Shown: positions 21,765-60,420 of the stretch, piece by piece
How the letters are laid out: the number at the start of each line of letters is the position of its first letter
Position numbering within the stretch: the first letter of the stretch is position 1
Source of the DNA: a virus
Length of the DNA stretch: 64,000 nt
Direction: 5' to 3' (one strand)
Virus record (IMG/VR): IMGVR_UViG_3300033146_003955
Coordinates: 32,001 to 96,000 of that record
Position numbers and translations under genes: made by a program
The notes under the pieces: generated by a model
Databases searched by the model: none
Seen by the model: the letters and a program-made list of their open reading frames with translations, nothing else
Told to the model about the DNA's origin: nothing

Positions 21765-22118
21765 ATGAGACAGATTAAAAGAGTACCGGAAAATGGCTTT
21801 ATTTATATAATTGCAAAACGTGATAAACATGATGTTTTAAGAGTTCATAGTACGGAAGGTTTATATGCACGACATAACAGTTTCGGTGAAAAAGAGGGAC
21901 TAGTTTATTTATATAATAAAAAAGAATTACTTAAAATTAAAACGAAGAAGGACGATTTTGTTATTAAGATAACATCTAAAGCTATAAAACAAATGTATGA
22001 AATAACACGTAAGAAAAGTTGGGATATATATTCTTATTATATTAAAGATAGAGTTGATCCTCTTTATAGGACGGCATTAAAATATGGAAATGGTAAACAT
22101 TCAAAGCATGTTGCATAA
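21765..22118 (+). CDS. Hypothetical protein
   Basis: AAGGA SD. Confidence 0.55.
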   Translation: MRQIKRVPENGFIYIIAKRDKHDVLRVHSTEGLYARHNSFGEKEGLVYLYNKKELLKIKTKKDDFVIKITSKAIKQMYEITRKKSWDIYSYYIKDRVDPLYRTALKYGNGKHSKHVA

Positions 22119-22184
22119 TTTATATTATGCAGAAAAGGCTAAAGCTTTATTATTAAGACCATATTGTTTCCATTGGAGTTCCAA

Positions 22185-22463
22185 ATGAATGAGGAAGTGA
22201 AAGCTAAACATCTCCTTTTAGGAAGCAAATGTAGTAATTGTATATATTGTGGTGCTGAGCCTAATAAAATTAGTTGTGTTCTCTCTCAATCATCTATAGG
22301 TAAAAATCGTATTTTTATACATGAAAATTTTTGTAGTTTTTATCTCTCAGACAAACTTATGAAAAATGAAAATTTCCATAGCAAGGTATATTCTAATTTA
22401 AAAAATTTTGGAAATTTGGAGAATGTTGTTAAGGAAATGGAGACATATCGTGGAATTAGCTAA
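22185..22463 (+). CDS. AKxLL-tagged small Cys-rich protein
   Basis: MNEEVKAKHLLLGSKCSNC...C...C. Confidence 0.6.
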   Translation: MNEEVKAKHLLLGSKCSNCIYCGAEPNKISCVLSQSSIGKNRIFIHENFCSFYLSDKLMKNENFHSKVYSNLKNFGNLENVVKEMETYRGIS

Positions 22464-22725
22464 ACAACTTTTATTAGGGAGGGATTGTAAGAACTGTATA
22501 TATTATACTACTCGTGAAAAGCTTGTGAGCGATCGTTGTATGTTGGAACATTATCCTGGAAGGGGAGACGATTATCCAGGTCATAATTTGTGCACCTCAT
22601 ATGCTTCTTGCACTATACAGAATAATAATGATTTTATGCGTGCTATAATGCTTCGCAAGAATTACGTCACATTTGATGATATGAAATACTTTGTAGAAAA
22701 AGTAGAAGAATATAAAGATGAATGA
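22450..22725 (+). CDS. AKxLL-tagged small Cys-rich protein
   Basis: GTG start after GGAG; VELAKQLLLGRDCKNC...C...C. Confidence 0.6.
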   Translation: MELAKQLLLGRDCKNCIYYTTREKLVSDRCMLEHYPGRGDDYPGHNLCTSYASCTIQNNNDFMRAIMLRKNYVTFDDMKYFVEKVEEYKDE

Positions 22726-22736
22726 TTTAAAAATAT

Positions 22737-22916
22737 ATGAAGTATAGAAACGAAGTAAGATCTACAATATATGTAAGGCCGCTACATAATCCTAAACGAG
22801 GGAAATGTGATTTATGTTCTACTTATACTTGGACACATAATACAGAGTTTGAAGGTGAGGAATTATATCTTTGTAATAAATGTAAAGAGGATTTGTTTTA
22901 TCATGAAAGTAGGTGA
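22737..22916 (+). CDS. 59-aa Zn-ribbon protein (not in ORF track)
   Basis: Translated by hand: ...GKCDLC...LCNKCK... Confidence 0.5.
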   Translation: MKYRNEVRSTIYVRPLHNPKRGKCDLCSTYTWTHNTEFEGEELYLCNKCKEDLFYHESR

Positions 22917-23151
22917 TTGGCTTTTTGAGGCACATGATATAGGAGGAGATGAAATAAATATATTAATGGAAATTATATATATTGATAAAGATGAACTTGA
23001 AGTTATGTGGTATGATACGAAAGAAAGTTGGCCAGAAATAGATAAAGAAGTAATAGCAAGAGATGAAATAGAACGTTATTTAGACACAGGCGATATTGTA
23101 ATAATAAATGAAATAGAAGCAGCTAAATATTTATTAGCGGGGATAAAATGA
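22903..23151 (+). CDS. Small SH3-like protein with C-terminal AKxLL
   Basis: MKVGDWL...IEAAKYLLAGIK. Confidence 0.55.
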   Translation: MKVGDWLFEAHDIGGDEINILMEIIYIDKDELEVMWYDTKESWPEIDKEVIARDEIERYLDTGDIVIINEIEAAKYLLAGIK

Positions 23152-23657
23152 CAAGCGGAAAATTAATTGAATTATTGAAAGAAGTAGATCCAGAAGGTAA
23201 ATATCATATAAGAGCAAGTGGTGGTGCAGTTTTAGATGTTGAGAGGAAACCTGGTTATTGGGACGGGATGTATAGATATTTTGATGAGGATGGTAATTTT
23301 GTAATTTCCACTGAAGGTGATAAAATTGATATTGATTCTATAGACCTAGAAACATGGATTTGGAATAGTAAAGGAAATGAAGATAAGGTTAAATTTGATC
23401 TAACTTACTTAGATGATGGTGAACACGAGAGAGATATTAAAGATAAAATCAAAGAATATGTAAAAGATAGAGACAGGTTAAGTGATCAATTTATGAAATC
23501 TTCTGTTTATGACATAATGTTGAAGATAAAAGGAGGCTGGAAAATTATTCAGAGGGGTGAAAAATGGTCTGGTACTTACTATGTTAAAGGTGTGAGAAAG
23601 AAGAAATTAACTGTGGGTGAAATAAGAACGCTAAAGGATTCGAAGCTCTTTAAATAA
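23148..23657 (+). CDS. Hypothetical phage protein
   Basis: Operonic ORF with a PGYWDG motif. Confidence 0.6.
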   Translation: MTSGKLIELLKEVDPEGKYHIRASGGAVLDVERKPGYWDGMYRYFDEDGNFVISTEGDKIDIDSIDLETWIWNSKGNEDKVKFDLTYLDDGEHERDIKDKIKEYVKDRDRLSDQFMKSSVYDIMLKIKGGWKIIQRGEKWSGTYYVKGVRKKKLTVGEIRTLKDSKLFK

Positions 23658-23723
23658 AAAAAAGGTAGATGGAAATTAATAGTTAAAATGTAATTAAATA
23701 CCTCCTCCCCCTAAAGATAGTAT

Positions 23724-23981: not shown

Positions 23982-24080
23982 TGGCAAATAGAAATGGAAG
24001 AAGGTGATCAAATAAGGAATAAGTAGAAAACAAACTTAATAAAAGCATAATTAAATATATAACTAAAAGTAGGAGTAAAT

Positions 24081-24377
24081 ATGAAATTAAAAGTATTCGG
24101 CGATAGAATTGTTTTTAGAGCCCTTCCAGATGACCAAGTCATAGAAGAGAAATCAGCAGGTGGTATCATTATACCCCAAGCAGTCAGAGAAAATATGAAA
24201 GCTCAAAGACGTAACTACAAAGGTGAAGTAGTTATGGCGGGTGATAAATGCGAATTTGTTAAGGAAGGCGATATAGTTAGCTATGATGAATACGGTGTTG
24301 CATCCTTTTGGCATTTAGGTGAAGAATTGATAATTGTTCGTGAGAAGGATTTAATTGGAAAATATGACGAAGATTAA
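24081..24377 (+). CDS. groES: Co-chaperonin GroES-like (capsid-folding co-chaperone)
   Basis: LKVFGDRIV, KSAGGIIIP, GEVVMAG, VKEGDIV, IVREKDLIG. Confidence 0.85.
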   Translation: MKLKVFGDRIVFRALPDDQVIEEKSAGGIIIPQAVRENMKAQRRNYKGEVVMAGDKCEFVKEGDIVSYDEYGVASFWHLGEELIIVREKDLIGKYDED

Positions 24378-25456
24378 TGCCTTCTAAATTAACAACCAAA
24401 GAATTTATAAATAAAGCTAAACAAATACATGGCAACAAATATGATTATTCTTTGGTTGATTATAAAAATAATAAAACTAAAGTTAAAATAATATGTTCTA
24501 AGCATGGTATATTTGAACAGGTTGCATCGAATCATATGAACGGTTCGATTTGTCCAATTTGTGCAAATCGTGTTCAATACACAACTAAAGAATTTATAGA
24601 GAAAGCTAAACAAATACATGGTAACAAATATGATTACTCTTTGGTTGTATATAAAGGTAATAAAGGTAAAGTTAAAATAATATGTCCAGAACATGGTATA
24701 TTTGAACAAACGCCTAATAACCATTTAAGTAAAAAAGTTGAATGTCCAAAATGCAAAAATACTAAATATACAACTGAAGAATTTGTAGAGAAAGCTAAAC
24801 AAATACATGGCGAAAAGTATGATTATTCATTAGTTAATTATAAAAATATAAAAACTAAAATTAAAATAATATGCCCTAAACATGGTATATTCGAACAATT
24901 TCCGGTACATCATATTAGAGGCACAAAATGCGCTAAATGTGCAAATTCTAATTTGTATATGACTACCAATGATTTTATAAAAGAAGTCAAAAAAATACAT
25001 GGCGAAAAGTATGATTATTCTTTAGTTGATTATAAAGGTTATATATCAAAAATTAAAATTATATGTATAAAACATGGTATGTTTGAACAAGACACTTATT
25101 CGCATTTACACGGAAGTGGTTGTCCCAAATGTAAAGAAAGTCAAGGTGAAACTAAAGTTCGTTTATTTTTAGAAAAGAAAAATATAAATTATATACAAGA
25201 ATATAAATTTAAAAATTGTGTTTCGAAAGAATCATTAAGATTTGATTTTTATCTTCCTACTGAAAATATCTTAATAGAATATGATGGAGAACAACATTTT
25301 AAAGCTATGAATTATTTTGGTGGCATTGAAGCCTTTAATAGATTAAAAATACGAGATGAAATAAAAAACCAATATTGTATTGATAATGATATACAATTGA
25401 TAAGAATTAAATATGATGAAAGCGTAGAAGATAGATTAAATGAAAGTAATCTTTGA
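24377..25456 (+). CDS. DUF723-type Zn-repeat endonuclease (4 repeats plus Vsr/PD-(D/E)XK-like domain)
   Basis: TTxEFIxKAKxxHGxKYDYSLVxY...IICxxHGxFxQ...H...CxxC repeats; C-terminal FDFY..LIEYDGxQH. Confidence 0.8.
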   Translation: MPSKLTTKEFINKAKQIHGNKYDYSLVDYKNNKTKVKIICSKHGIFEQVASNHMNGSICPICANRVQYTTKEFIEKAKQIHGNKYDYSLVVYKGNKGKVKIICPEHGIFEQTPNNHLSKKVECPKCKNTKYTTEEFVEKAKQIHGEKYDYSLVNYKNIKTKIKIICPKHGIFEQFPVHHIRGTKCAKCANSNLYMTTNDFIKEVKKIHGEKYDYSLVDYKGYISKIKIICIKHGMFEQDTYSHLHGSGCPKCKESQGETKVRLFLEKKNINYIQEYKFKNCVSKESLRFDFYLPTENILIEYDGEQHFKAMNYFGGIEAFNRLKIRDEIKNQYCIDNDIQLIRIKYDESVEDRLNESNL

Positions 25457-26495: not shown

Positions 26496-26924
26496 ATGAC
26501 AGATGAAAAAGAAAAACAATTGACAGAACGATTTTCATTCCTTAGAACTAGTGGTGATCCGACGAAGGATTTAATGGTTCTCGGTTTCGCATGTAATGAC
26601 GGTTGGTTTCAGACCATCTGGGACCTTTGCGAAGATTTAGATAAGATGAATAAAGAAAGGATGAAAAACATCTCCCAAGATGAGATTGCTAAAGCCATTT
26701 TAGACCACGGGTACAATCCATATGAATTTAAAGTTGTACAAGTTAAAGAGAAATTTGGCTCTCTTAGATTTTATACCAACGTCGCTAATGATAAGATGTA
26801 TAAAAGAATTCGAGAAGCTGAGGATGCCACGACTGAAATATGTGAGGATTGCGGTGCACCTGGTTCTATAAGAAATAATGGTTGGATTAAATGCCAATGC
26901 GATAAATGTTTTGAGAATAAATGA
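26496..26924 (+). CDS. Phage protein of the DGW...QVKEKFGxLRFY type with Zn ribbon; carries an internal AKxIL
   Basis: Named motifs plus CEDCG...CDKC. Confidence 0.7.
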   Translation: MTDEKEKQLTERFSFLRTSGDPTKDLMVLGFACNDGWFQTIWDLCEDLDKMNKERMKNISQDEIAKAILDHGYNPYEFKVVQVKEKFGSLRFYTNVANDKMYKRIREAEDATTEICEDCGAPGSIRNNGWIKCQCDKCFENK

Positions 26925-27241
26925 ATATGGAAGAAAACCAATTGGCCAAAGATCTCTTAACTGGTAGATCATCTATTACGTATGTAAAAAAGAATTATAG
27001 TATGAAATTTATGATGCGTGCATCTACTAAGAAAAAGGATTTATATTTCTTTAAAACTCTTTTTAGATATCTAACCCAAAAAAAATATTCGTCGCTATAT
27101 ACATGTAGAAAAATATATAATTTTAACTTTCCTTCAGATGAAAGTAGTTTCGTAATGATGGAAATAAAATTTGACAGGACATCTCCTTGCACTACTGCGG
27201 ACGATCGGTGGGAATCATATAAAAAATTAATGAAAAATTAA
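26921..27241 (+). CDS. AKxLL-tagged hypothetical protein
   Basis: MEENQLAKDLLTGRS. Confidence 0.55.
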   Translation: MNMEENQLAKDLLTGRSSITYVKKNYSMKFMMRASTKKKDLYFFKTLFRYLTQKKYSSLYTCRKIYNFNFPSDESSFVMMEIKFDRTSPCTTADDRWESYKKLMKN

Positions 27242-27289: not shown

Positions 27290-28579
27290 ATGTTAAATGA
27301 TTTATACAATTTAGTAAAAGAATTAAATACTACAAACTCAAGTAATAAGAAGAAAGAGATATTAATAAAGTATCCTCAATGTAAAGAACTTCTTATATGG
27401 GTTTATTCATATAAAACGCTTTTTAATGTCACATCTAAGAATGTAAAAAAAAGGAGTGATTTAAAAGATGCAACTGCTTTTGAAGACATTATAGAACTTT
27501 TAACGGCCCTTAATAATAGAGATATTACAGGCCATGCTGCCATTTCAGCAGTTAATGCCTTCATAGAACATAACTCAGAATTTGAAGATCTCATTTATTT
27601 AATTATAGATAAGAATTTAAAAACACGTACAGACACCTCACTTATCAATAAAGTATGGCCGGGTCTTATACCTACATTTGACGTACAGTTAGCAATTGAT
27701 TATGAGAAGCAGAAACATAAAGTTGATTATGTAAAAGATGAATGGAGATCGAGTCGAAAATTAGATGGCGTAAGGTGTATAGTAAAATGTAACGATAGAG
27801 GAATACCGTCATTTTTTTCGAGGGAAGGTAGAGAGTTCACGACGCTTAATAATATTAAAGAAGATATTATGCATCTTCCTTTAGCATTAAGGAAAAATAA
27901 AGTTTTTGACGGTGAGATTTGTATAGTAGACGAGAATGGTAATGAAAATTATAAATCTATTATGAATGTTATTAAAAAGAAAAATTTTACCATTCCCAAT
28001 CCTCGTCTCATCCTCTTTGATTATTTGAAAATGGATGAATTTCTAACTAAAAAAGGGAAAATAATATTTTCTAAGAGATATGAAGCCCTCAAACTTCTTC
28101 CCTTCAATCCTAGATTTATAGTAGTTACAGACCAGATTCTTATTAAAGATGAAGACCATTTCCAAGAGTTGAGGGATGAAGCAACTGATAATGGGTGGGA
28201 AGGCTTAATAATAAGAAAGGATGTTGTTTACAAGGGAAAGAGAAGTAATGATATGCTTAAAGTTAAGAAATTCCACGATGCTGAATATACAGTTGTTGGT
28301 ATTGAAACTGGACTTTTTAGAATAATTGATAAAGTTACTAAACTTGAGAGAGAAGAAGATATGCTTACTAGGGTTAATATTCTCCATAAAGGCAATGTTG
28401 TTGGTGTTGGAAGTGGTTTTTCTATTAGTGAAAGGCAACGTTATTTTCTCCATCCTGAAGAAATTATCGGAAAGGAAATAACTGTACGCTATTTTGAAAC
28501 AACAAAAGACAAGAATGGAAAGGAAAGTTTAAGATTTCCAACTGTTAAGTTTATATTTGAAAATGGAAGAGATGTATGA
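27290..28579 (+). CDS. ATP-dependent DNA ligase
   Basis: KLDGVRC, FDGEI, EGLIIR, KRSNDMLKVK, VGSGFS, SLRFP. Confidence 0.92.
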   Translation: MLNDLYNLVKELNTTNSSNKKKEILIKYPQCKELLIWVYSYKTLFNVTSKNVKKRSDLKDATAFEDIIELLTALNNRDITGHAAISAVNAFIEHNSEFEDLIYLIIDKNLKTRTDTSLINKVWPGLIPTFDVQLAIDYEKQKHKVDYVKDEWRSSRKLDGVRCIVKCNDRGIPSFFSREGREFTTLNNIKEDIMHLPLALRKNKVFDGEICIVDENGNENYKSIMNVIKKKNFTIPNPRLILFDYLKMDEFLTKKGKIIFSKRYEALKLLPFNPRFIVVTDQILIKDEDHFQELRDEATDNGWEGLIIRKDVVYKGKRSNDMLKVKKFHDAEYTVVGIETGLFRIIDKVTKLEREEDMLTRVNILHKGNVVGVGSGFSISERQRYFLHPEEIIGKEITVRYFETTKDKNGKESLRFPTVKFIFENGRDV

Positions 28580-28749
28580 TAATTGAAATGGGGTCTATGC
28601 CGATAAACTGGCGGAGAGCAGATATAGTTTTAGTTCATAAAGATAAAGAAATTTATGAAGTAGGAAAGGATAGGCAAAATATATTTGCAAACCTGCCTAG
28701 CACTCTTCACGTAAGTGAAATAGCTAAAATGTTATTAGTGAGAACATAA
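28576..28749 (+). CDS. 57-aa protein with C-terminal AKxLL (not in ORF track)
   Basis: Translated by hand: ...RADIVLVH...YEVGKDR...SEIAKMLLVRT; overlaps both neighbouring genes. Confidence 0.6.
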   Translation: MIIEMGSMPINWRRADIVLVHKDKEIYEVGKDRQNIFANLPSTLHVSEIAKMLLVRT

Positions 28750-29045
28750 TGGATTTAAGCCAATATAAAAGTATTTTTATTACTAAATATAAAATTAATT
28801 ATACTGGAGCAAAAATACCTGATGACAAAGGTTCTGCTCTTAATACATATAGAGCTGATTTAATTTTAATTGATACTGGTAATAACGTTTTTAAAGTTGT
28901 TAAAGATAGATACGAAGCAGCAAATAACACAATAATAATAACTGATAATGAGATGGCAAAATTACAATTATTAGATAATATATTACAACCAATAAAAGGA
29001 ATTAAATTAAAACGAAAGCCAAGATGGTTATTGCAGTTAATATGA
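28749..29045 (+). CDS. Paralog of 28576/29872 with AKxxLL
   Basis: RADLILI...FKVVKDRY...EMAKLQLL. Confidence 0.6.
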   Translation: MDLSQYKSIFITKYKINYTGAKIPDDKGSALNTYRADLILIDTGNNVFKVVKDRYEAANNTIIITDNEMAKLQLLDNILQPIKGIKLKRKPRWLLQLI

Positions 29046-37856: not shown

Positions 37857-38227
37857 AAAAAGCTGATCAACTTAAAATACTCGTTGTTGAAGATATGTCT
37901 TCAAGAATTCAATTTTTTAGAAATAGGTTTAAAGGGCATGATCTCTATTTCTTTGATAACGCTACTGATTCCATTGATGCTCTTAAGCTTATGACTGATA
38001 AACCTTGGGATATTGTCTTCCTAGATCATGATTTGGGTGGAAAAGTATTTGTTCCCTCATCAGATCCAAATACAGGTTATGTTGTGGCTGAATATATTAG
38101 GGATAATAATATTAAAATTAATCAAATATTTATACATTCTATGAATCCTGCTGGAAGTCAGAATATTAAATCTGTTCTCCCTCAAGCTAAAATTATACCA
38201 TTTACTCTTTTAAAAACAAGTATATGA
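37844..38227 (+). CDS. Cyclic-phosphate-processing receiver-like domain protein
   Basis: ILVVED..R, FLDHDLG, TGYVVA, IHSMNPAG. Confidence 0.7.
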   Translation: MAYIKKADQLKILVVEDMSSRIQFFRNRFKGHDLYFFDNATDSIDALKLMTDKPWDIVFLDHDLGGKVFVPSSDPNTGYVVAEYIRDNNIKINQIFIHSMNPAGSQNIKSVLPQAKIIPFTLLKTSI

Positions 38228-38634
38228 ACGCTTTAACTGCTAAATTTAACCTTTTACATGGAACTTTTCAAGAATATATCGATAATGATGAATATTTTTC
38301 TTTTGAGGTATCTTCGACACAAGATAAAGTTTCAAATATGTATAATGATGAAGTATTTGAAGACTTTGAAGCATTTTATATAACTGAGGGTTTTACTAAA
38401 ATTAGTGAATTAATATATAAAGATCCTGATGACGGGACTGAGAAGGAATTTACATGGCAAACATGGGCTGACCTCTGGGATGAGTTGAGAGAAGAGTTTG
38501 TAGAAGAGTTAGTTGATACTTTCGTTGAATTTCTTGAAGATAAATTAGGTGAGGAATATAAACCCTTCATCACAAGTAATAATGATATAATACGTAAAAA
38601 GGCAGAAGAATTACCTTATGAGTGGGAACTTTGA
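38224..38634 (+). CDS. Acidic hypothetical protein
   Basis: Operonic ORF. Confidence 0.55.
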   Translation: MNALTAKFNLLHGTFQEYIDNDEYFSFEVSSTQDKVSNMYNDEVFEDFEAFYITEGFTKISELIYKDPDDGTEKEFTWQTWADLWDELREEFVEELVDTFVEFLEDKLGEEYKPFITSNNDIIRKKAEELPYEWEL

Positions 38635-39349
38635 CATACAGCTAAAAACTCTTCAATTTCATGCTACAAAGCAAGATGTCAATTTTTTAAATAACCCAGA
38701 TAATAAACGTGGTATAATCAAGCTAATCAAAAAAAATAAACTTAATCCCTCTGTGATAGAATATATTTGGAGTAATTCTAAATATAAGAATGAGATTATA
38801 AAAAAACAAACTCTCCCTACCGTTATAAGGGAAGATATAATACACAGTTGTCAAATGTCATATTCTACTTATAATTGGGCAACTATATTAAGAAATTTTA
38901 TTAAATTTCATTCTCCAACAGATGAAGAATATAAAAAATTTTTAACATCGTATAGATCAAATCTAATGATATTAGAATTATGGAATATCGTTCCTAGAAA
39001 ATGTTATGAATTAGGTGGTGAAGAAGCATTATATAAAATAATGCTTAATAATGAAGTAAGAACGCAATATGCTCTTAAAAGACTTCACTATTTAGTCGTT
39101 GAGATAATGAAATATGTGCCTGAAATGCATCTTCCACTCATTGAAACTATAATTAATGTAGACGACGATAGTTTTACTACAAAATTTTTAAGCCCTGTCT
39201 TCAAAGCAACTACAGTAAGCGATGAGGCAGTAAACTTCTTACTTAAAAATTTAAAAACAGATACTTTCAAAGAAATTGTTAAAAATGCTATGCGTCGAGG
39301 TAATATTAGCGATATTATGTTGGCTAAAATATATTTGGCTATAGATTAA
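38618..39349 (+). CDS. Helical hypothetical protein with C-terminal AKxxL
   Basis: Ends ...DIMLAKIYLAID. Confidence 0.55.
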   Translation: MSGNFDIQLKTLQFHATKQDVNFLNNPDNKRGIIKLIKKNKLNPSVIEYIWSNSKYKNEIIKKQTLPTVIREDIIHSCQMSYSTYNWATILRNFIKFHSPTDEEYKKFLTSYRSNLMILELWNIVPRKCYELGGEEALYKIMLNNEVRTQYALKRLHYLVVEIMKYVPEMHLPLIETIINVDDDSFTTKFLSPVFKATTVSDEAVNFLLKNLKTDTFKEIVKNAMRRGNISDIMLAKIYLAID

Positions 39350-39624
39350 TGTTGAGTCTCCTCCTCTTTAACATATTATATTCTTTTCTTATCCTAGTGG
39401 TATTAAGTTTATTTGTACATGTCTTCAGAAATAATTTACGTGCTCTGCTCAAAGATACAAAACTTATTGATATTATAGGCGAGAGTGATGATGAATCTTA
39501 TTCAAATAAGCATGGCTTTTTAGCATATTTATTTTTGTGTGGTACATATATAGCTTTTATGATTTATGCCATTGCAGGATTAGGATTTCTAATATATATG
39601 GGGTTGATATGGGGAAGAAAGTAA
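39349..39624 (+). CDS. Two-TM membrane protein
   Basis: Two hydrophobic segments. Confidence 0.55.
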   Translation: MLSLLLFNILYSFLILVVLSLFVHVFRNNLRALLKDTKLIDIIGESDDESYSNKHGFLAYLFLCGTYIAFMIYAIAGLGFLIYMGLIWGRK

Positions 39625-40085
39625 CAATTAGTTTTACACTTTTAGAATATATAATAATTATATGGCTTATAAGTCTTTTACTTTTACCTGAGATATTTAT
39701 GGTTAATCACCTCTTAATTTTAATAATGGGAATTGTTATTGGTATATATAACATTGGATTAACTATTATTTTACCATTCATGATAATAGCTTTAGGGGCT
39801 GCGTATATATTTGTCTATACAAACAAAATTAAGCATAAATTTAATGATACTATCAAAACTGTTAGAAGTTCTACAGATATAAAACATACATTCTATAAAC
39901 AAGCTGTTGATATTATATTACGTTTTGTCATCATATACCTTGCATGGCGTTTCAATTATAAATATCTATCTATAATTTCAATTATTAGTCTTATTATAAC
40001 ATTGGGTTTTAAGGCTATAAACACTGATTTCAAGGTTAAAATTGCTAAGCTTACTCTTTTGGACAACGCAGAAGATGTGGTATAA
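39609..40085 (+). CDS. Multi-pass membrane protein with C-terminal AKxxLL
   Basis: Several hydrophobic segments; ends KIAKLTLLDNAEDVV. Confidence 0.55.
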   Translation: MGKKVTISFTLLEYIIIIWLISLLLLPEIFMVNHLLILIMGIVIGIYNIGLTIILPFMIIALGAAYIFVYTNKIKHKFNDTIKTVRSSTDIKHTFYKQAVDIILRFVIIYLAWRFNYKYLSIISIISLIITLGFKAINTDFKVKIAKLTLLDNAEDVV

Positions 40086-40129: not shown

Positions 40130-41020
40130 ATGAATGTACAAAGTCTATCTGTAGTAGTTCCTGGTGGATGTCCTAATAGTTGTTTATATTGTGTTTCTAA
40201 AACACATAAAGAAATTAAATATAAAGATACAATATCACCATGTGTTAGGCGAATACAAAATAAAGCTTCTTTCACAAATTATGATATGGAACAATATATC
40301 AATAGAATGGAGTTTGCTAGAGATAACGGTTGTAATACTGTAATTCTAACTGGTGAAGGTGAACCAGTCTGGAATAAGAAATTTCTCAAAGCTTTCGGAC
40401 AATGGAATAAGGCTCTTGATAAACCTTTCAGATGGATTGAGATTCAAACTTCTGGTATTGGTCTTGATGGTGAGACACTCTCACTTCTTAAAAAAGTTGG
40501 TGTTAACACAATCTCTCTCTCAATCTCATCTTTTAATGATGAAAAGAATAACGAATATAATGGTATCAAACCCGAGAATCAATTTAATATAGCTGAAAGA
40601 TGTAACCAAATTAAGAAGGAAGGTTTTAATCTAAGACTTTCTATTAATGCAACTGATGCATTTAATAGGTGGCTGCCGGTAGAAATATTTAATACAGCTA
40701 GTATTTTAGGAGCTGATCAATTGACATTCCGTGTTCTTTACGATTCTGGAAATCCAGAGCATGAAGTTGATATCTGGATTAATGAGCATAGAGTTAGCAA
40801 CCAGTTACAAAAGAATTTTATTACGTATGTTCAGGAAAATGGTAATAAATTAGAACAGCTTCCTTTTGGCCCTTTTAAATATTCGGTTGATGGCGTATCT
40901 ACTGTTATCGACGACGACTGTATGAGCAAGGAACTTAAAGATACTATTAAGTACTTTATCTTAAGACCTAATGGGAAATTATATACTCGTTGGGATGATA
41001 CGGGGAGTTTGTGGTTTTAA
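40130..41020 (+). CDS. Radical SAM protein
   Basis: CPNSCLYC (CxxxCxxC), LTGEGEP, IQTSG. Confidence 0.85.
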   Translation: MNVQSLSVVVPGGCPNSCLYCVSKTHKEIKYKDTISPCVRRIQNKASFTNYDMEQYINRMEFARDNGCNTVILTGEGEPVWNKKFLKAFGQWNKALDKPFRWIEIQTSGIGLDGETLSLLKKVGVNTISLSISSFNDEKNNEYNGIKPENQFNIAERCNQIKKEGFNLRLSINATDAFNRWLPVEIFNTASILGADQLTFRVLYDSGNPEHEVDIWINEHRVSNQLQKNFITYVQENGNKLEQLPFGPFKYSVDGVSTVIDDDCMSKELKDTIKYFILRPNGKLYTRWDDTGSLWF

Positions 41021-41412
41021 TGGATGATACGGAGGCTAAGCTTCTATTAAGAGGTGCAGAGGAATATAAAATCTTCTATTCTAATGGGCAGCAATATGAA
41101 TCATATTATGTTTTAGATGGTTTAAGGGAAGGTGAATATAGAGAATGGTATATAGATGGCCAAATAAAAAAATGTTGTTTTTATAAAAATGATGTTATAG
41201 ATGGTGAATATAAAGAATGGCATGAGAATGGACAATTGCGAATTCACAACTTTTACAAAAATGGTTGTGAAATAGGAAATATAACTACATGGTATGATAA
41301 TAACCAAATATCTTCGGAATGTAAATTTGATAAAAATGGTGAAGTTATAGACTATAGGATGTGGAATAAAAAAGGTGAACAAATAGAAGATATTTCTAGA
41401 GAAGATGCTTAA
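41020..41412 (+). CDS. MORN-variant (YwqK-like) repeat protein with N-terminal AKxLL
   Basis: GEYxEWxxNGQ repeats; MDDTEAKLLL. Confidence 0.75.
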   Translation: MDDTEAKLLLRGAEEYKIFYSNGQQYESYYVLDGLREGEYREWYIDGQIKKCCFYKNDVIDGEYKEWHENGQLRIHNFYKNGCEIGNITTWYDNNQISSECKFDKNGEVIDYRMWNKKGEQIEDISREDA

Positions 41413-46905: not shown

Positions 46906-47118
46906 ATGGAAGACGGTTACAGAAAAGTTGAACGAGAAAATGGATTTTCAGAAATAACAATCGGTGACAGAATTAGACTTTCAGATGTAGAAAAAGATGG
47001 TATTACCTTACTTGAAGATGTTCCTCAAAAGGGTGATAAAATTTATTTAGTAAATACTCTCCCAGTTAAAAATAAGGATGGAGTTTTAGCCGTAGAATGT
47101 GATACTGTTGAAGAATGA
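46906..47118 (+). CDS. Small hypothetical protein
   Basis: AAGGAG SD. Confidence 0.5.
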   Translation: MEDGYRKVERENGFSEITIGDRIRLSDVEKDGITLLEDVPQKGDKIYLVNTLPVKNKDGVLAVECDTVEE

Positions 47119-47357
47119 ACGTTGGAGAAGTTTGGCTTAAAAGAAGACAAAGGCCTGAAAGAGAACGATTTTTTGTTATGAAGAAAAATAACAATTCTGG
47201 TTTTCGAGGACTTATGATGGCTCGTCAATCTTTATATGAAAATGTTTTTTTGAGTAATGATAGTATAAAAGGTTTTGAAGAAAAAAATAAACTTCTAACT
47301 GATGATGAAGTTGCTAAATATATATTATTGGGTGATTTGAATCCAGCAATACTATAG
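47115..47357 (+). CDS. Small protein with C-terminal AKxxLL
   Basis: MNVGEVW...DEVAKYILLGD. Confidence 0.55.
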   Translation: MNVGEVWLKRRQRPERERFFVMKKNNNSGFRGLMMARQSLYENVFLSNDSIKGFEEKNKLLTDDEVAKYILLGDLNPAIL

Positions 47358-48260: not shown

Positions 48261-48564
48261 CTTTTGTGACCAAGAAGATTGCCTTCTCCATCCCACCTAT
48301 ATTAAAAAAGAAGAGGAAAGAGCAAAACGGGAAGCTCAAGCAAAAGGACATCTTGTTGCTATAGAAGATGGTTCTCAATGGGCGCCGGCTTCTTATGACC
48401 ATAGTATTTTTTGGGATAGTTCATGTATTAGCGTGCAAGCAGTGAGAATTAAAACCTCAACAGTAGATATCCCTGTCGAATGTACAATATGCTCACATTT
48501 TAAAAAGTTGGACATGAAAGAAATATTAATAATAGAAGAAGCAAAAAAGGCATTGAATGACTGA
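48250..48564 (+). CDS. Cys/His-containing hypothetical protein
   Basis: CxxxxCxxH...CxxC; ends EEAKKALND. Confidence 0.5.
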   Translation: MQHNFCDQEDCLLHPTYIKKEEERAKREAQAKGHLVAIEDGSQWAPASYDHSIFWDSSCISVQAVRIKTSTVDIPVECTICSHFKKLDMKEILIIEEAKKALND

Positions 48565-48898
48565 AATAGATGAAGCTAAATTTCTTCTCACCCACACTAA
48601 ATGTATAAAATACTACGATAACGGTAATATACAATCTACACATTATATGTTTGATAATTTAATAGATGGTGAAGAGAAGATATGGCGAGAAGACGGTAAA
48701 CTCTTAATCCAATCTAATTGGGTTAAAGGAAAGAAAGAAGGTAAATTTGAACAGTGGCATGCTAACGGCATGTTGAGCGAAATATGTTATTTTAAAAATA
48801 ATAAGAAGAATGGTGAAAGCAAAAAATGGTATTATAACGGATTGTTAAAAAAACATACACTATATAGACATGGAGAAGTGCTTGAAACCTACAAATGA
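48557..48898 (+). CDS. MORN-variant repeat protein with N-terminal AKFLL
   Basis: GxxxxWxxNG repeats. Confidence 0.75.
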   Translation: MTEIDEAKFLLTHTKCIKYYDNGNIQSTHYMFDNLIDGEEKIWREDGKLLIQSNWVKGKKEGKFEQWHANGMLSEICYFKNNKKNGESKKWYYNGLLKKHTLYRHGEVLETYK

Positions 48899-49313
48899 AG
48901 AAGCTAAATTTTTATTATTACATGATTTACAAAAGCAATATTACACTAACGGTAGAATAAAAGCAAAGTATTATATGTTAGATGATAAAATGGACGGAGA
49001 ATACAAAAGTTGGCATCAAAATGGTAATATGAGTATTTGCTGTTTTTATAAAAAAGGTGTTTTACATGGTGATTATACAGATTGGTATCAAAACGGTCAA
49101 TTATGGGAGAAACGCTTCTATATAGATAACAAATTAAATGGTCAAATAAAAGTCTTCTACGAAGACGGCCAGCAGCAATATACAGTTTATTATAAAGACG
49201 ATTTGCGTGAGGGTGAATATAAAGAATGGGATGAAGAAGGGTTACTCATTACACATTATATATATGAAAACAATGAAGTTGTAAAAGATTATCCTCTTAA
49301 AAAGCATATTTAG
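48870..49313 (+). CDS. MORN-variant repeat protein with N-terminal AKFLL
   Basis: GEYxxWxxNG repeats. Confidence 0.75.
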   Translation: MEKCLKPTNEEAKFLLLHDLQKQYYTNGRIKAKYYMLDDKMDGEYKSWHQNGNMSICCFYKKGVLHGDYTDWYQNGQLWEKRFYIDNKLNGQIKVFYEDGQQQYTVYYKDDLREGEYKEWDEEGLLITHYIYENNEVVKDYPLKKHI

Positions 49314-51397: not shown

Positions 51398-51416
51398 AAG
51401 TAATACTTAAAAATTT

Positions 51417-53034: not shown

Positions 53035-53493
53035 ATGGATTATGTAACAGAATCAATTTATGCCAACATTTATATAACTCACAATAGAGATAAAACTCAT
53101 ATTTATCAAAAAATACGTATAGTACCACAAAAACCAATTTTCCTCAAATATTTCATGTATGAAAAGTATAAAATAGGCAGAATCGTTCATGACCTCTTCC
53201 AGGAATTATATCTTGGGGATGGTGATAATATCATGTATGAAAGTACTATGACTTTCAAGAATACCAAAACAATAACTTATCGAATAGATAATGAAATAGA
53301 TCTAGACCTTGACGATCAAGAATATCACGTTGAAGGAGAGAGACCTAAATTTGATGCTTGTTCTGCTTGTACCTATCTTGTGATATCTAAAAGCGGTGCT
53401 GATAAATGTAGATTTCATAAAAAATTCCTTAAAAGACATAAAAAGAGTTGCACAGACTTCCTTGAGAAGGGAAATGATAATGGGGCAGTCTGA
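53035..53493 (+). CDS. Hypothetical protein with C-terminal Cys cluster (likely leaderless)
   Basis: CSAC..C..C; ATG lies 14 nt after GCATATTT. Confidence 0.6.
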   Translation: MDYVTESIYANIYITHNRDKTHIYQKIRIVPQKPIFLKYFMYEKYKIGRIVHDLFQELYLGDGDNIMYESTMTFKNTKTITYRIDNEIDLDLDDQEYHVEGERPKFDACSACTYLVISKSGADKCRFHKKFLKRHKKSCTDFLEKGNDNGAV

Positions 53494-53764
53494 TATTGCT
53501 AAAAGTTTATTAATTGGACAAACTTGCGATAGTTGTACTCATAAAACCACTTTTTTTGGCATTGGTGGCCCAAATAATAATCCTGTAACAGGATGTATAC
53601 TTAAAAAAACCGAAACGTTCCCCAAAGAAAAAACATGTAGTAAATGGTCTTTAAAAATAGAAGGGCCACAGTATGGCGTTTTTTCACCAACATACACTAC
53701 TGAAACAAAACTTACATTATTGGAGAAAATATGGAAGAAGTTGAAACAGCTAAAAATCTTTTAG
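53474..53764 (+). CDS. AKxLL-tagged Cys-rich protein
   Basis: DIAKSLLIGQTCDSC...C...CSKW. Confidence 0.6.
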   Translation: MIMGQSDIAKSLLIGQTCDSCTHKTTFFGIGGPNNNPVTGCILKKTETFPKEKTCSKWSLKIEGPQYGVFSPTYTTETKLTLLEKIWKKLKQLKIF

Positions 53765-53916
53765 AGGGAAAAAGTTGCGATAATTGTAAAAGACAAAAAA
53801 GTGAAGATATATGCGTTAGATGGCTGGGTGAAGCTTATGGATGGCAATGGTGGAGTAAAGCGGAGGAAGGTATATGTGATGACTGGATTGATAAACAACG
53901 AGAAAACACGCTGTAG
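53731..53916 (+). CDS. AKxLL-tagged Cys-rich protein
   Basis: ETAKNLLEGKSCDNC...C...CDDW. Confidence 0.6.
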   Translation: MEEVETAKNLLEGKSCDNCKRQKSEDICVRWLGEAYGWQWWSKAEEGICDDWIDKQRENTL

Positions 53917-53997: not shown

Positions 53998-54207
53998 ATG
54001 AGCTGGATGAAACCAACACCTGTAGCAAAGATAAACAGTATGACTAGACCTGAGATGGCTAAAAATCTCCTTGAAGGAAAAACTTGCGACACCTGTGGCT
54101 TAGAAAGAGATGAAGATGATTGCTGTGTGTGGTTGGGTGAAGATAAAGGTTGGGCTTGGGTACATAACAAAGGTTATGGTACATGTGCCTATTGGGAAGA
54201 ATTATGA
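53998..54207 (+). CDS. AKxLL-tagged Cys-rich protein, close paralog of 53731
   Basis: EMAKNLLEGKTCDTC...WLGE..GW.W....G.C..W. Confidence 0.6.
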   Translation: MSWMKPTPVAKINSMTRPEMAKNLLEGKTCDTCGLERDEDDCCVWLGEDKGWAWVHNKGYGTCAYWEEL

Positions 54208-54837: not shown

Positions 54838-54856
54838 AGAAATAAAGAAAGGAAAA

Positions 54857-55232: not shown

Positions 55233-55234
55233 AC

Positions 55235-55263
55235 AAAGAGAGAGCTATTAAGCTCCTTTTTTT
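55235..55263. terminator. Hairpin at the convergent gene junction
   Basis: GAGCT-ATTA-AGCTC flanked by A- and T-rich tracts. Confidence 0.5.
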
Positions 55264-56468: not shown

Positions 56469-56480
56469 ATTTTTTCTCCT

Positions 56481-57035
56481 TTATAGTTCCCAACTTTTCT
56501 CAATTTTATCTTCATAATCTTTACAGTTACCTTGTAAATAATCTTCAACAAAACAACAAAGCGCGTGACTGTCAACTACGTTATCGTCGAATACTGTTTG
56601 TTTCTTAATTCTTTTAAAGAATGGTATATTAGCACCTCTCTTATTTGCTTCTTCTATCATAGCCAATTTGTCTGCATTACCACTACCTGTATAATATTTT
56701 TTTAAAGTCTTAGGCGGAATGATGATAAATTTAATATCTTTAGTGAAGTATAAGGCCCGGAGCATATGGGACAAGCCTCCAAGTTCAAATAAAGTATTTC
56801 CGCGACTCGCATATGACATACCCTCCATACAAATATAGTCTGGCTTATATTTCTTTATAATCTCAGTTATATCTTCAACTATTTTTATTAATCGTTTCGT
56901 ATAATCAATAGTTGGGGTTTTTGTATTTTTAGTTTTAGACGATGATATTAAATAATAATATTCTTCACCTTCAGAAAAAACTGTTATGCCACTACCAACA
57001 AGACTTTGATCAATACCCATATATATATTACTCAT
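56481..57035 (-). CDS. RuvC-like Holliday junction resolvase
   Basis: GIDQS..GSG, CMEG, PKTLKKYYTGSGNADK, DNVVDS. Confidence 0.8.
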   Translation of the reverse strand: MSNIYMGIDQSLVGSGITVFSEGEEYYYLISSSKTKNTKTPTIDYTKRLIKIVEDITEIIKKYKPDYICMEGMSYASRGNTLFELGGLSHMLRALYFTKDIKFIIIPPKTLKKYYTGSGNADKLAMIEEANKRGANIPFFKRIKKQTVFDDNVVDSHALCCFVEDYLQGNCKDYEDKIEKSWEL

Positions 57036-57942
57036 CTTTTATCCTTATAAATTTATATTCAGGTAAATACTTTTCTATTTGATGTTATCTTACTATATCT
57101 TTTTCACAAAGATTTCCACTTATATCAAAATGTTTTTTCTCATCATATTCCATAATCAATTTCATATCATGGTTTATATAATCTACCCAATAACCTAATT
57201 CTTTTATATGATACTCACCACCGTTTCTAGCATGTTGACCATTCGTATTATTATCTTTATCGAATTGTTCGAAATGGTTACAAGCTTTGGGATTCCAATT
57301 TGGTACTAATTGTTGTCCTAGTGTCAATCTTTCCTCAACTGTTTTTATAGCTTTTAACCTTCTATTTTTAATTTCTTCAGCAGATTGAATTCTAACTTTT
57401 CCTTTTTTTGCTTTGCTCATTTTCATTCTTGTTTCTTTAGAAAATGGTTTTCTTTTTGTTCCTTTCATTGCATCCATAGCGCACTTATGACAACAATATT
57501 TACTATCATTACGTTTTTTGTATGATATTTCATATTCATTTTTGCAATAATTACATATCAATTTAACATCAGGACTAGGCTTTTTATTTGATTTACATTT
57601 TATACGCATTTCCTGCGCTTTATCTCCATACAACTCTTCAAATGTTTTACCTTTACTCCAAGGAATATTACCAATATGACTTTTACTCCTCACCTTTCTT
57701 GATTCCGCCGACATTTCTAAATCTTTTTGCCATTCATTAAAACAATTTTTACTACAATATTTACGGTCTCTTTTTTTGTATTCTACACTAAAAATTATTC
57801 CACAATAATTACATTTTATTTTTACAGGGCTATGAGCTTTAGCTTTATTTCTGTGTGTTGTTGCACAAGACTTACTACAAAATTTTTGATTTTTATAATA
57901 TGTTTTAAACTCTTTATTACATTCTAAACAAACTTTTATCAT
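57028..57942 (-). pseudogene. Zn-ribbon/NUMOD3-type homing endonuclease with premature stop at 57085-57087
   Basis: CxxC..YCSxxC repeats, SxETRxKMSxAKKG, YWVDY..IMEYDExxH. The frame continues past TAA as HQIEKYLPEYKFIRIKDE to a stop overlapping the RuvC-like start. Confidence 0.65.
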
Positions 57943-58009
57943 ATAATTATCTTGTATATATTTTTAAAATTGTCATGTTTCTACTTCTAAAGTAAGTGCT
58001 TCCCAATCA

Positions 58010-58246
58010 CTAATACGGATGGAAGCTTATTACTTCTATAAACCTTGTAAATATAAATTTTATTCCATCTGCAGGAAGATAAGTAGTTTCGTAAGATAGA
58101 ATTTTCTCATCTCCAACTTTATTATTGTCCCCGTGTATAATATGAGTTATTATTCCTTCTATTTCAACACGGCCAAACCTCTCTATTTTCTTATCATCTG
58201 TTTCGATAATATAAGCTTCACCTAAGAACATTACAAACTTTTCCAT
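58010..58246 (-). CDS. Hypothetical protein
   Basis: ORF in the minus-strand block. Confidence 0.45.
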   Translation of the reverse strand: MEKFVMFLGEAYIIETDDKKIERFGRVEIEGIITHIIHGDNNKVGDEKILSYETTYLPADGIKFIFTRFIEVISFHPY

Positions 58247-58445
58247 TATTCAAATACCAACCTTATTATTTTTCTGAAAGCTTCAGGCTTATCAACTTCA
58301 ATCTTTGCTTTTAAATTTTTCAGCAGAGTAATATACGCAAAAAATTTATATTCTATATTATCTTTGTAAAGTGTTGATATTATGATCATTTTATAAAGAT
58401 AATATAGAATATAAATTTTCAAAATCACTATATTAGGAGAATTAA

Positions 58446-58727
58446 ATGCCTAAAATTGATTTACAATCTCAAATAGTTTTAACTGTAGTTGGCCTACTTG
58501 TAACAGCTGCTCTTGTATTTGTTGGTATATCATTCTTGGGAATGCAAGATGATCTTCAACAACTAACTGTCGACGTAACAACTTTGCAGTCTTTACAAAA
58601 AACGTCAGCGATAGCCAATTCTAATGCTTTTAAAAATGCAAATGAGGATTTGATTGCTGTAAAAACTGATTTGAAATTAGATATACGAGAGTTGAAAAAT
58701 GATATAAAATATTTATGGAGGAGATAA
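58446..58727 (+). CDS. TM plus coiled-coil protein (holin/spanin-like topology)
   Basis: N-terminal TM, heptads, AGGAG SD. Confidence 0.5.
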   Translation: MPKIDLQSQIVLTVVGLLVTAALVFVGISFLGMQDDLQQLTVDVTTLQSLQKTSAIANSNAFKNANEDLIAVKTDLKLDIRELKNDIKYLWRR

Positions 58728-59248
58728 TGAGAATACTATTTATTATATTGTTAATCATACTGCCTATTTTTGTATTTTCTCAGCAAATTGTAGAAGAAGA
58801 TTTAATAGATGAGTTAAATTTTTGGAATTCAAATTTAAATTTTGAGTATAAAAACAATACTCTTTATATATATGATTATTATTCAAGTGATTACAGCGAT
58901 GTATCTCTTGGTTTATCAGATATCTTAGAAGGTATAACATATTATTTGAAAGATATTCAAATAGATTTAAAAAATTTAGATTTAAATGTTGAATATACAT
59001 GGGGAAGCCGTAATTATAGTAATGATGACTTCATTATGGAAAAATTGCATATAGATCCAGAATGGTTGATCGCCTACACTTTAACCGAAAGTAGAAAAGA
59101 TAAACAAGCAATGTTTGATGAGGTATTAAATCCAATATATAGAAGCATAAAAGATGACTTTCAGATATATCAGTCTCAACAAGTAAAACAAGCCATTTTT
59201 AATTTAAAAGAAGTTCAAATTTTACCTAAAGATGATTTTGAACGATAA
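58715..59248 (+). CDS. Secreted/periplasmic protein
   Basis: Signal peptide MRILFIILLIILPIFVFS. Confidence 0.55.
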   Translation: MEEIMRILFIILLIILPIFVFSQQIVEEDLIDELNFWNSNLNFEYKNNTLYIYDYYSSDYSDVSLGLSDILEGITYYLKDIQIDLKNLDLNVEYTWGSRNYSNDDFIMEKLHIDPEWLIAYTLTESRKDKQAMFDEVLNPIYRSIKDDFQIYQSQQVKQAIFNLKEVQILPKDDFER

Positions 59249-59323
59249 CACAGAAATTAAGTATAATAAATTTAATTTTTTCTCTATCTTTAATATTTTC
59301 ATCTTTAGAGCATAATTTAATAT

Positions 59324-60025
59324 ATGAGAAAGAATAAATACTCGAAATCAAAGATAGACACGTTCAAGAAATGTAAACTTCAATATAAAAAAAAGTATAT
59401 TGAGAAAATTAAATTGCCTCAGCCTCATTCTGATGACCTTCAATTCGGCTCCTGGATTCATAAATGTTTAGAAATTTACAACCCAGATGCAGACAACAAG
59501 ATTGAAGTTATTAAACTTTTTAAACATTTCGATATTAGAGGGAAAGCTTATATTAATGCCATCCCTCAAACTCTTAGAAATGCTATAGCATATACTAAGA
59601 AAAATTGGAAATACCCTAGAGAGAATGAGCAAACTATAACTTATGAAGGGAATGAGATTACAATCACTGGTATTGTAGACTTAAAAATGGAGCAGAAAAA
59701 TGGTTTAGTTGTTGTCGATTATAAATCATCAAAAACTGCTAATCCATGGCGTCATGAATATCAAATGAAGATGTATACATACATGTTTATGAAAATTGAA
59801 AGTCTCCCAGCTGAAAAAATACATTCAGTTATATACTATCCTCGAATTGATGATTACAATCATTATAATTTTACTACAATAGATATGAAATTATTTGAAC
59901 AAGAACTCATGCAAGATATTGTGGATATAGAAACTACAAAAGTTTATCCTGCTTCACCTGGTTACCATTGTAGATGGTGTCCTTACCTTGATACTGAACA
60001 TTGTTCTAAAGGTCAAAAGCCTTAA
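59324..60025 (+). CDS. Cas4/RecB-like PD-(D/E)XK exonuclease
   Basis: YSxSKIDTFKKC, GSWIH, GIVDL, VDYKS, QMKMY, CRWCPY...C. Confidence 0.8.
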   Translation: MRKNKYSKSKIDTFKKCKLQYKKKYIEKIKLPQPHSDDLQFGSWIHKCLEIYNPDADNKIEVIKLFKHFDIRGKAYINAIPQTLRNAIAYTKKNWKYPRENEQTITYEGNEITITGIVDLKMEQKNGLVVVDYKSSKTANPWRHEYQMKMYTYMFMKIESLPAEKIHSVIYYPRIDDYNHYNFTTIDMKLFEQELMQDIVDIETTKVYPASPGYHCRWCPYLDTEHCSKGQKP

Positions 60026-60026
60026 A

Positions 60027-60206
60027 ATGGATTTAGCTTTAGCTGCTAAACATTTGTTACTTGGTAGAAATTGTTTTAATTGTAATTATTATAAAACTAA
60101 AAAAAGTAAATGTTCACATGATTTAGATATTTGTATTTTTGCTAACGGGCAAGGTGACAAATTACCTAGCGCAAATATTTGTAAATATTGGAGTAGATAT
60201 GAATGA
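60027..60206 (+). CDS. AKxLL-tagged Cys-rich protein
   Basis: MDLALAAKHLLLGRNCFNC...C...CKYW. Confidence 0.6.
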   Translation: MDLALAAKHLLLGRNCFNCNYYKTKKSKCSHDLDICIFANGQGDKLPSANICKYWSRYE

Positions 60207-60420
60207 AGACAAATTAGCAAAAAAATTATTGGAGAACAATATTCCTCCCCAATATATTCCTTATTATGAGATAATAGGTGATAGAAAATTAACATTACCA
60301 GTGAAAGGTGCAGTCATCATATTAGCAGAAAATAATGGATTTGATGTACGATTTATAAAAATTGATACAGTAATAACGGATGATTTTCATCCTTATAGAT
60401 TAAATATACATATAGATTAA
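60199..60420 (+). CDS. AKxLL-tagged small protein
   Basis: MNEDKLAKKLLENN...ITDDFHPYRLNI. Confidence 0.55.
   Translation: MNEDKLAKKLLENNIPPQYIPYYEIIGDRKLTLPVKGAVIILAENNGFDVRFIKIDTVITDDFHPYRLNIHID

Follow-up and report, generated by a model that had tools for sequence, protein, structure and literature searches.

What does it mean when many small and mostly unrelated proteins of one phage begin or end with the same short peptide? The question is raised by a 64,000-nucleotide stretch of viral DNA (hereafter the window), which consists of bases 32001-96000 of the 158,812-bp contig G000 from an uncultured large phage (IMG/VR record IMGVR_UViG_3300033146_003955; 31% GC). In the window the peptide Ala-Lys-x-Leu-Leu (AK-x-LL, or AK.LL as a search pattern; here called the tag) is found repeatedly at protein ends. 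The motif is real, terminal, under selection at the protein level, portable between unrelated protein bodies and between both protein ends, and conserved in a clade of large phages.

Contig G000 is linear according to IMG/VR and about 80% complete according to CheckV. No close relative of it was found among deposited phages, and its large proteins mostly lack a PHROG match. A simple caller based on codon usage and ribosome-binding sites gives 216 genes on G000. Three whole related phage records (G001, G002, and G003; 114-388 kb, 27-41% GC), the largest being the 388-kb G003, and a more distant 418-kb phage, G004, were compared with it. A syntenic block is common to the window and its relatives. 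It runs from a gene for an ATPase-like protein of 870 amino acids (aa) through MoxR, DUF2201, cREC, STAS, SLT, tmk, RuvC, a PD-(D/E)XK nuclease, and a flap nuclease. Head genes are not in the G000 record; G000 and G002 are incomplete records.

In the 216 called proteins of G000, AK.LL occurs 20 times. When residues are shuffled within each protein, the mean is 1.17 and the maximum is 6 (1000 shuffles). The excess is found at protein ends, where 17 copies are terminal (12 or fewer residues from a protein end) compared with 0.10 in shuffles. A count over all six frames of G000 gives 31 copies of AK.LL and 2-11 copies of each of the control patterns (KA.LL, AR.LL, SK.LL, GK.LL, LL.KA, and AK.II), and, read together with the gene calls, it shows no enrichment of AK.LL in non-coding frames. 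The position of the tag is also narrow. Met stands exactly six residues ahead of Ala in 10 of the 13 N-terminal copies, and Ala is residue 7 in 8 of the 216 gene calls. In C-terminal copies of G000, Ala is the 7th to 9th residue counted from the end. A variant with one extra residue, AK..LL, is likewise terminal. When all four-residue gapped patterns are ranked by terminal enrichment without bias, AK.LL comes first, and AAK..L shows mild terminal enrichment. A scoring matrix trained only on the three other genomes finds 25 terminal matches of 8 bits or more in G000 (0.36 in shuffles) and 10 matches in the protein interior, which is 8.5-fold larger than the termini.

The Leu codons of the tag are mixed (CTC CTT, TTA TTA, CTT TTA, TTG TTA, and others) and the x position is free. 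Since the Leu codons vary freely, the constraint acts on the protein. Residue choice, by comparison, is strict. Over the four genomes the terminal counts are 112 for AK.LL, 3 for AR.LL, 0 for SK.LL, 0 for GK.LL, and 3 for TK.LL. Lys is changed to Arg by a single transition (AAA to AGA or AAG to AGG), yet the ratio is 112:3, indicating a specific requirement for Lys. Such strictness is more in line with a specific pocket than with generic helix packing. As the origin of the motif, composition, chance, and signals in the nucleic acid can effectively be discounted. An earlier note on the window, which was made from the sequence alone, had proposed a recurrent, mostly terminal tag that is constrained as protein; this holds, and the observation is stronger than was stated there.

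The tag is not restricted to G000. AK.LL is found 35, 67, and 52 times in G001, G002, and G003 compared with 1.2, 2.8, and 3.4 expected, and with the same modal positions. Its density is 14-44 per 100 kb in tag-using phages compared with 3.2 in G004, which is the background level. Because G004 is at background despite having a 37%-identical MoxR, it serves as a negative control. A 45-kb phage has 6.6 per 100 kb, a figure that comes from three copies, two of which are its Cys4 genes (see below). Approximately one in ten proteins of G000 and its relatives carries the tag. No description of an AK-x-LL end tag was found in print in a literature search. The motif and its use at both ends are new.

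Tagged proteins are small. The median length of AK.LL carriers is 93 aa, the largest has 163 aa, and large proteins are untagged. Carrier bodies in G000 include eight members of the Cys4 family (six of them in the window) and three MORN_2 proteins; the rest have no Pfam or PHROG match. When the tag is masked, most carriers show no BLAST similarity to each other, as expected from the earlier suggestion of a portable terminal element on mostly unrelated small proteins. The 163-aa protein, whose gene lies outside the window, is tagged at both ends. Carriers and candidate carriers in the window, all on the plus strand (+), are as follows.

22084..22188 (+): 34-aa open reading frame (ORF), not called as a gene; AKALL at 22138-22152
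22185..22463 (+): Cys4 mini-protein, 92 aa; N-terminal AKHLL at 22203-22217, Ala is residue 7
22450..22725 (+): Cys4 mini-protein with a GTG start, start uncertain; N-terminal AKQLL at 22459-22473
22903..23151 (+): 82-aa protein of no known family; C-terminal AKYLL at 23122-23136, Ala is 9th from the end
26921..27241 (+): 106-aa protein of no known family; N-terminal AKDLL at 26945-26959, Ala is residue 9 (7 from the second ATG)
28576..28749 (+): 57-aa protein; C-terminal AKMLL at 28723-28737, Ala is 8th from the end
28749..29045 (+): 98-aa protein, a doubtful member; AKLQLL at 28956-28973
38224..38634 (+): 136-aa protein adjoining the cREC gene; N-terminal variant AKFNLL at 38239-38256
38618..39349 (+): 243-aa protein; degenerate C-terminal AKIYL at 39323-39337
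39609..40085 (+): 158-aa protein; C-terminal variant AKLTLL at 40044-40061
41020..41412 (+): MORN_2 protein, 130 aa; N-terminal AKLLL at 41035-41049, Ala is residue 6
47115..47357 (+): 80-aa protein with a TAG stop; C-terminal variant AKYILL at 47313-47330
48557..48898 (+): MORN_2 protein, 113 aa; N-terminal AKFLL at 48575-48589, Ala is residue 7
48882..49313 (+): MORN_2 protein, 143 aa from a TTG start (147 aa from ATG 48870); N-terminal AKFLL at 48903-48917
53480..53764 (+): Cys4 mini-protein, 94 aa; AKSLL at 53498-53512, Ala is residue 7
53731..53916 (+): Cys4 mini-protein, 61 aa; AKNLL at 53749-53763, residues 3-11 helical in an AlphaFold2 model
54040..54207 (+): Cys4 mini-protein, 55 aa from an inner ATG of the 53998 frame; AKNLL at 54058-54072
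60027..60206 (+): Cys4 mini-protein, 59 aa; AKHLL at 60045-60059
60199..60420 (+): 73-aa protein of no known family; N-terminal AKKLL at 60217-60231, tag kept in metagenome contig L001

All core AK.LL copies are where the earlier note had placed them. The copies that it assigned to genes at 53474 and 53998 are present, with the gene starts now taken as 53480 and the inner ATG at 54040, and the gene start given as 48870 is now taken as 48882 (TTG). The ORF that it suspected at 22090-22188 exists as the 34-aa ORF listed above but is not called as a gene. Its list of looser copies is less secure. The copy in 28749, counted there as C-terminal, is 29 residues from the end and doubtful. Those in 29225 (AAKNKL), 29872 (AAKIFL), 48250 (AKKAL), 49340 (AAKKKL), 26496 (AKAIL, internal), and tmk (AKVL) have no Leu-Leu pair and are loosely supported. 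The copy in 38618 is degenerate, yet it is taken as real because the G002 ortholog ends in AKYLLSK. Similarly, orthologs of 38224 in G002, G003, and G009 start with M-x5-AKILL or AKVLL. In both 38224 and 38618 the tag is kept in comparison with the G002 and G003 counterparts while the rest of the protein diverges. A homolog search with the 243-aa protein 38618 recovered only itself. No AK.LL tag is found on the window enzymes, i.e., the ligase, the HNH and DUF723 endonucleases, tmk, RuvC, the PD-(D/E)XK nuclease, the flap nuclease, MoxR, and DUF2201. The absence from ligase and endonucleases, with a loose match in tmk only, had also been pointed out from the sequence.

A tRNA with anticodon CUA (amber suppressor, labelled tRNA-Pyl by ARAGORN) is encoded at window 21503-21575 (+), and several window genes (47115, 48882, 53480, and 53731) end with a TAG stop. 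Because the window has both, some tagged C-termini could extend if TAG is read through. Other genes of the window include a GroES-type co-chaperonin (Cpn10, E 2e-10) at 24081-24377 (+) and a LAGLIDADG/HTH homing-endonuclease-like gene at 16935-17741 (+). At least six DUF723/DUF4379 endonuclease-like paralogs exist, at window 24377-25456, 30368-31438, 49836-51116, and 61180-62259 (+) with more outside the window. Each has repeats of the module K-L-T-T-E-E-F-I-x-K-A-K-x-x-H-G, of which there are about 20 copies genome-wide; it is the second strongest repeated peptide pattern of the proteome. Two promoter-like words recur between genes: GCATAATT(A), often found directly after a terminator hairpin, and (T)AAGATAAT. 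They are found at window 15949-15993, 20807-21093, 23982-24080, 43543-43630, 45212-45262, 51398-51489, and 59249-59323. Outside the window, at L006:14020-17129 (-) (G000 150020-153129), two paralogs starting with MKIRTGFVSNSSSS and MKVRTGFVSNSSSS have as neighbors a radical-SAM enzyme (phrog_7293, E 4e-93) and a DHH/DHHA1 phosphoesterase.

Is the tag a portable module or an integral part of its carriers? It is both, depending on the family. Three proteins, 41020, 48557, and 48882, match MORN_2 (PF07661) with 42-48 bits against a cut-off of 29.6, and the matches are to the bodies and not to the tag. MORN_2 homologs from elsewhere do not have the tag, and on MORN proteins it is lineage-specific. 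In G002, one MORN protein ends in AKELL, having the tag at its C-terminus. In G003, MORN paralogs with near-identical C-terminal ends start with MTIDQQAKALLL... or MKYIAREQIKRLF..., i.e., with the AK tag or with a second tag (...QIKRLF...). This second terminal motif is hydrophobic-hydrophobic-x-x-hydrophobic-Phe (e.g., KVIERIF, IIRLVFE, and QIKYLF). It is found at termini 19 times in G000 compared with 5.1 expected and 65 times in G003 compared with 17, and it marks gene clusters other than those of AK.LL. Its sites include window 58246-58389 (-) and 35890-37491 (+); most are outside the window, at G000 1124-8530 and 117,600-128,300.

The Cys4 family shows the other pattern. Its members share M-x5-AK-x-LL-x-G-x2-C-x2-C ... 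C ... C-x2-W. The family matches no Pfam or PHROG family, and Foldseek matched its model to no solved fold in the PDB. A DNA pattern for Met-x5-AK.LL-x-Gly-x2-Cys-x2-Cys finds 19 IMG/VR loci on contigs of 20-418 kb with 27-46% GC; at these loci AK.LL is also found on non-Cys4 proteins, at residue 7 or just ahead of the stop. Metagenome contig L001, which is syntenic with 53731-64000, keeps the tags and has six tandem Cys4 genes. A profile made from 31 Cys4 proteins detects 690 representative proteins (50%-identity clusters) at E <=0.001. Among the best 150 of these, 137 have AK.LL and the other 13 have AK.IL, AK.YL, AK.LM, AK.VL, or TK.LL, counts that have to be read with the fact that the profile itself favors the motif. 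Lys is invariant in these 150, and Ala is residue 7 in 89. In the 31-sequence alignment (17% mean column identity) only M1, A7, K8, L10, L11, and the four Cys are invariant, so the tag is as conserved as the zinc ligands. The earlier note had pictured a peptide grafted onto accessory proteins. This agrees with the MORN proteins, whose homologs elsewhere are untagged. For the Cys4 family it fails, since the motif is integral and near-invariant in distant homologs.

The expected shape of the tag is a helix, as had been supposed. AlphaFold2 with the 31-row alignment predicts residues 3-11 of a Cys4 protein as a helix followed by a zinc knuckle, with moderate confidence (pLDDT 67). In the flanks, residue 2 is preferentially Thr, Asn, or Asp, position -3 Asp, position -1 hydrophobic, and position +6 Gly or Asn. 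Such preferences describe a capped amphipathic helix with a hydrophobic stripe at -4, -1, 0, +3, and +4. For the doubly tagged 163-aa protein, AlphaFold2 without an alignment gives a mean pLDDT of 42.6, and the model is uninformative.

From these observations we tentatively prefer, well short of confidence, a reading in which AK-x-LL is a docking helix that is read in trans by one shared partner. Many small, fast-evolving accessory proteins would carry, at their extreme start or end, an amphipathic helix, about 11-13 residues long, with AK-x-LL as its core. The N-terminal form would consist of Met, five residues, and Ala-Lys-x-Leu-Leu, usually followed by x-Gly, and the C-terminal form of Ala-Lys-x-Leu-Leu and about two more residues. 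The variable body (a zinc ribbon, MORN repeats, or another small fold) would do a specific job, while the constant helix would dock in trans on one phage or host partner. Because that partner would be shared, all carriers would be handled as one group. Each candidate partner is unlikely when taken singly. In falling order of probability they are loading into a T4-type prohead, by analogy with the capsid targeting sequence (CTS) of T4; some other partner; and use as a degron or adaptor tether that is recognized by an AAA+ machine or a protease, e.g., by the conserved MoxR/DUF2201 pair. It is also conceivable, if doubtful, that in this clade of huge, T4-related phages 10-20% of the proteome is sorted by two interchangeable terminal address helices, AK-x-LL and hydrophobic-hydrophobic-x-x-hydrophobic-Phe, each with its own partner and swappable on the same body. 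If this is true, variable small binders such as zinc ribbons and MORN repeats would be routed to two fates, e.g., head loading for co-injection and an AAA+ machine.

Several points weigh against a docking helix. No partner was found. Complex prediction of a Cys4 carrier with the DUF2201 peptidase/VWA protein and with a stand-alone peptidase gave scores of 0.08 and 0.22, below the mark of 0.32, and speaks neither for nor against docking. The large terminase of G003, which is T4-type (L052:1139-2992 (-), G003 121136-122992), starts with MTREEHAKALLKG, in which residue 7 is the Ala of AKALL. At that place VQNLV is found in the G013 ortholog (60% identical), which comes from a tag user with 14 Cys4 genes, so the terminase tag is not conserved. 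In Cys4 proteins only three residues separate Leu-Leu from Cys, which places the helix directly against the first CxxC knuckle, and near-invariance in distant members is as would be expected for a part of the fold. A Pro/Gly-rich linker between tag and body is not general (0.113 compared with 0.093 in the background), and C-terminal copies resemble the end of a longer helix. As for the prohead, the T4 CTS is N-terminal only, whereas about one third of the AK.LL copies are C-terminal (5 of 17 in G000 and 13-16 in G002 and G003). No consistent T4-type (Leu/Ile)-x-Glu cleavage site is found after the tag (Glu is at +5 in 9 and at +6 in 4 of 51 N-terminal copies), a consensus that may not be the specificity of this clade's protease.

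The shared-block protein is a 133-aa protein encoded at L004:25-426 (G000 96025-96426), 25 bases beyond the window end. No gene of the shared block is better conserved (identity of 63-67% with the G002 and G003 counterparts), and its Atlas model matches Csx15 clusters (TM 0.82). With a Csx15-like fold it was rejected as the hub. MoxR was rejected as a sufficient marker of the tag, as its G004 homolog occurs without tag enrichment. Co-occurrence with DUF2201 was set aside as well: a 31%-identity relative has no tags within 21 kb and 36%-identity relatives have six, which is inseparable from phylogeny. The clade keeps two MoxR-type AAA+ genes with HExxH peptidase/VWA partners, tied to the tag by co-conservation only. 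The DUF2201 protein of the window, at 43631-45211 (+), has an HExxH peptidase and a VWA domain with two CxxCGGxG motifs (the DnaJ-type zinc-finger pattern) between them; these motifs are invariant in the G002 and G003 orthologs.

Could the same helix act in cis? The tag may be the final two turns of a helix that caps, and thereby completes, very small folds such as zinc ribbons and MORN stacks, with no common reader, and may have spread by duplication and module shuffling at gene ends among small genes. As a general explanation this reading, the main rival of the docking helix, is rather unlikely, although for the Cys4 family it is probably true at least in part. There the motif is integral (137 of the 150 best representatives), stands three residues ahead of the first zinc knuckle, and forms a modelled helix contiguous with the domain. 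More generally, the x-Gly or x-Asn that ends N-terminal copies is a typical helix C-cap, Thr, Asn, or Asp at position 2 and Asp at -3 resemble an N-cap, and linkers are not enriched. Unrelated folds, however, would hardly share four residues or so strictly exclude Arg, Ser, Gly, and Ile. Nor does a structural role sit easily with a motif that works at the N- as well as at the C-terminus and is exchanged for another helix on one MORN body, or with MORN_2 proteins that fold without it elsewhere. A signal in the nucleic acid (an element of start regions or gene boundaries, or a linker for recombination), or a neutral remnant of common gene ends, is extremely improbable. It would account for the fixed distance from start and stop codons in tightly packed genes with ATGA overlaps, but it is largely refuted by the fully mixed synonymous Leu codons and the free x position, by persistence of the motif at 27-41% GC, and by the lack of enrichment in frames other than the coding one.

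The strict Lys allows another explanation, in which one enzyme of the phage or its host recognizes the short terminal helix and this residue is the site of acylation, conjugation, or cross-linking. Peptides that accept biotin or lipoyl function at either protein end, as does the tag, and both the 112:3 ratio over AR.LL, which is one transition away, and the invariant Lys of the 150 best Cys4 representatives would follow. We consider this improbable, for no candidate ligase is found among about 32 genes common to G000, G002, and G003, the radical-SAM gene at 40130 is not in G002 or G003, and a non-covalent pocket is also compatible with a strict Lys. It is more improbable still that the tags bind each other as a homotypic zipper, with Ala for close packing and Leu-Leu as the core, so that tagged proteins co-assemble. 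The same motif at N- and C-termini, the protein tagged at both ends, and the hydrophobic stripe are consistent with it. Against this, a helix of two turns is short for stable pairing, N- and C-tagged neighboring genes show no pairing pattern, and the model of the doubly tagged protein tells nothing about it.

Should the helix be an address that is read, a single code of five residues would explain how dozens of uncharacterised proteins per genome are handled in this group of huge phages. It would also give a direct experimental handle on what accessory proteins are recruited to, and the tag could serve phage engineering as a portable loading or targeting tag. Even if the helix is structural, there remain a zinc-ribbon family that is both very large (at least 690 clusters at 50% identity) and undescribed, and one protein body on which terminal modules have clearly been swapped.

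Several known systems have short constant modules on variable proteins. Poxvirus ankyrin/PRANC F-box-like proteins have a constant short module on variable binders; they are eukaryotic and their reader is the SCF ligase. There, as in the MORN repeats and zinc ribbons here, tandem diverging binder arrays keep one small terminal module, although in the tag no more than five of its residues are fixed. Clamp-binding peptides (bacterial QL[SD]LF and T4 gp45-binding tails) are short terminal motifs read by one ring. They are similar to the tag in being located at the extreme N- or C-terminus of several proteins. AK-x-LL differs in having no Gln and another consensus (not QL[SD]LF or QLxLxL), and its carriers are not DNA enzymes; the ligase, flap nuclease, RuvC, and tmk are untagged. 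Another example is provided by the terminal degrons and adaptor tethers of AAA+ proteases, such as ssrA, the N-termini of lambda O and Dps, the C-terminus of MuA, and the SspB tail. These are also short tags at either end of unrelated proteins, and those of lambda O and Dps have hydrophobic residues after an Ala-Lys. Compared by eye, the five ClpX classes of N- or C-terminal motifs do not appear to match the tag; only the Ala-Lys-hydrophobic core of N-motif 1 resembles it. MoxR proteins are not known to be unfoldases. A MoxR and peptidase-VWA pair is found in group 2.2 jumbo phages, where its proposed role is in virion assembly (PMC7824862).

Bacillus phage G has a lineage-specific expansion of about 35 zinc-ribbon proteins, for which a role in DNA binding or as transcription factors is proposed (Iyer et al. 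2021, PMC7824862). Compared by description only, it is likewise a huge phage with dozens of diverged small zinc-ribbon paralogs. It differs in that no shared terminal motif is reported, and none that extends to unrelated proteins (PMC7824862). In T4, internal proteins IPI-III and Alt have the CTS, an N-terminal peptide of about 10 residues that is the sole conserved part of this diverse set of small, fast-evolving proteins (PMC3012670). The tag is similar in being a short peptide that is constant on diverse, fast-evolving small proteins. The T4-type prohead protease (Peptidase_S77) is found in G003 and G001 (76 bits) and was not found in the incomplete records G000 and G002. Because G003 and G001 encode it, T4-like head assembly and the CTS precedent are relevant here. 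The tag sequence is unrelated to that of the CTS and is carried by approximately 10% of all genes. The strict requirement for Lys and Ala and the use of both termini set the tag apart from the T4 CTS.

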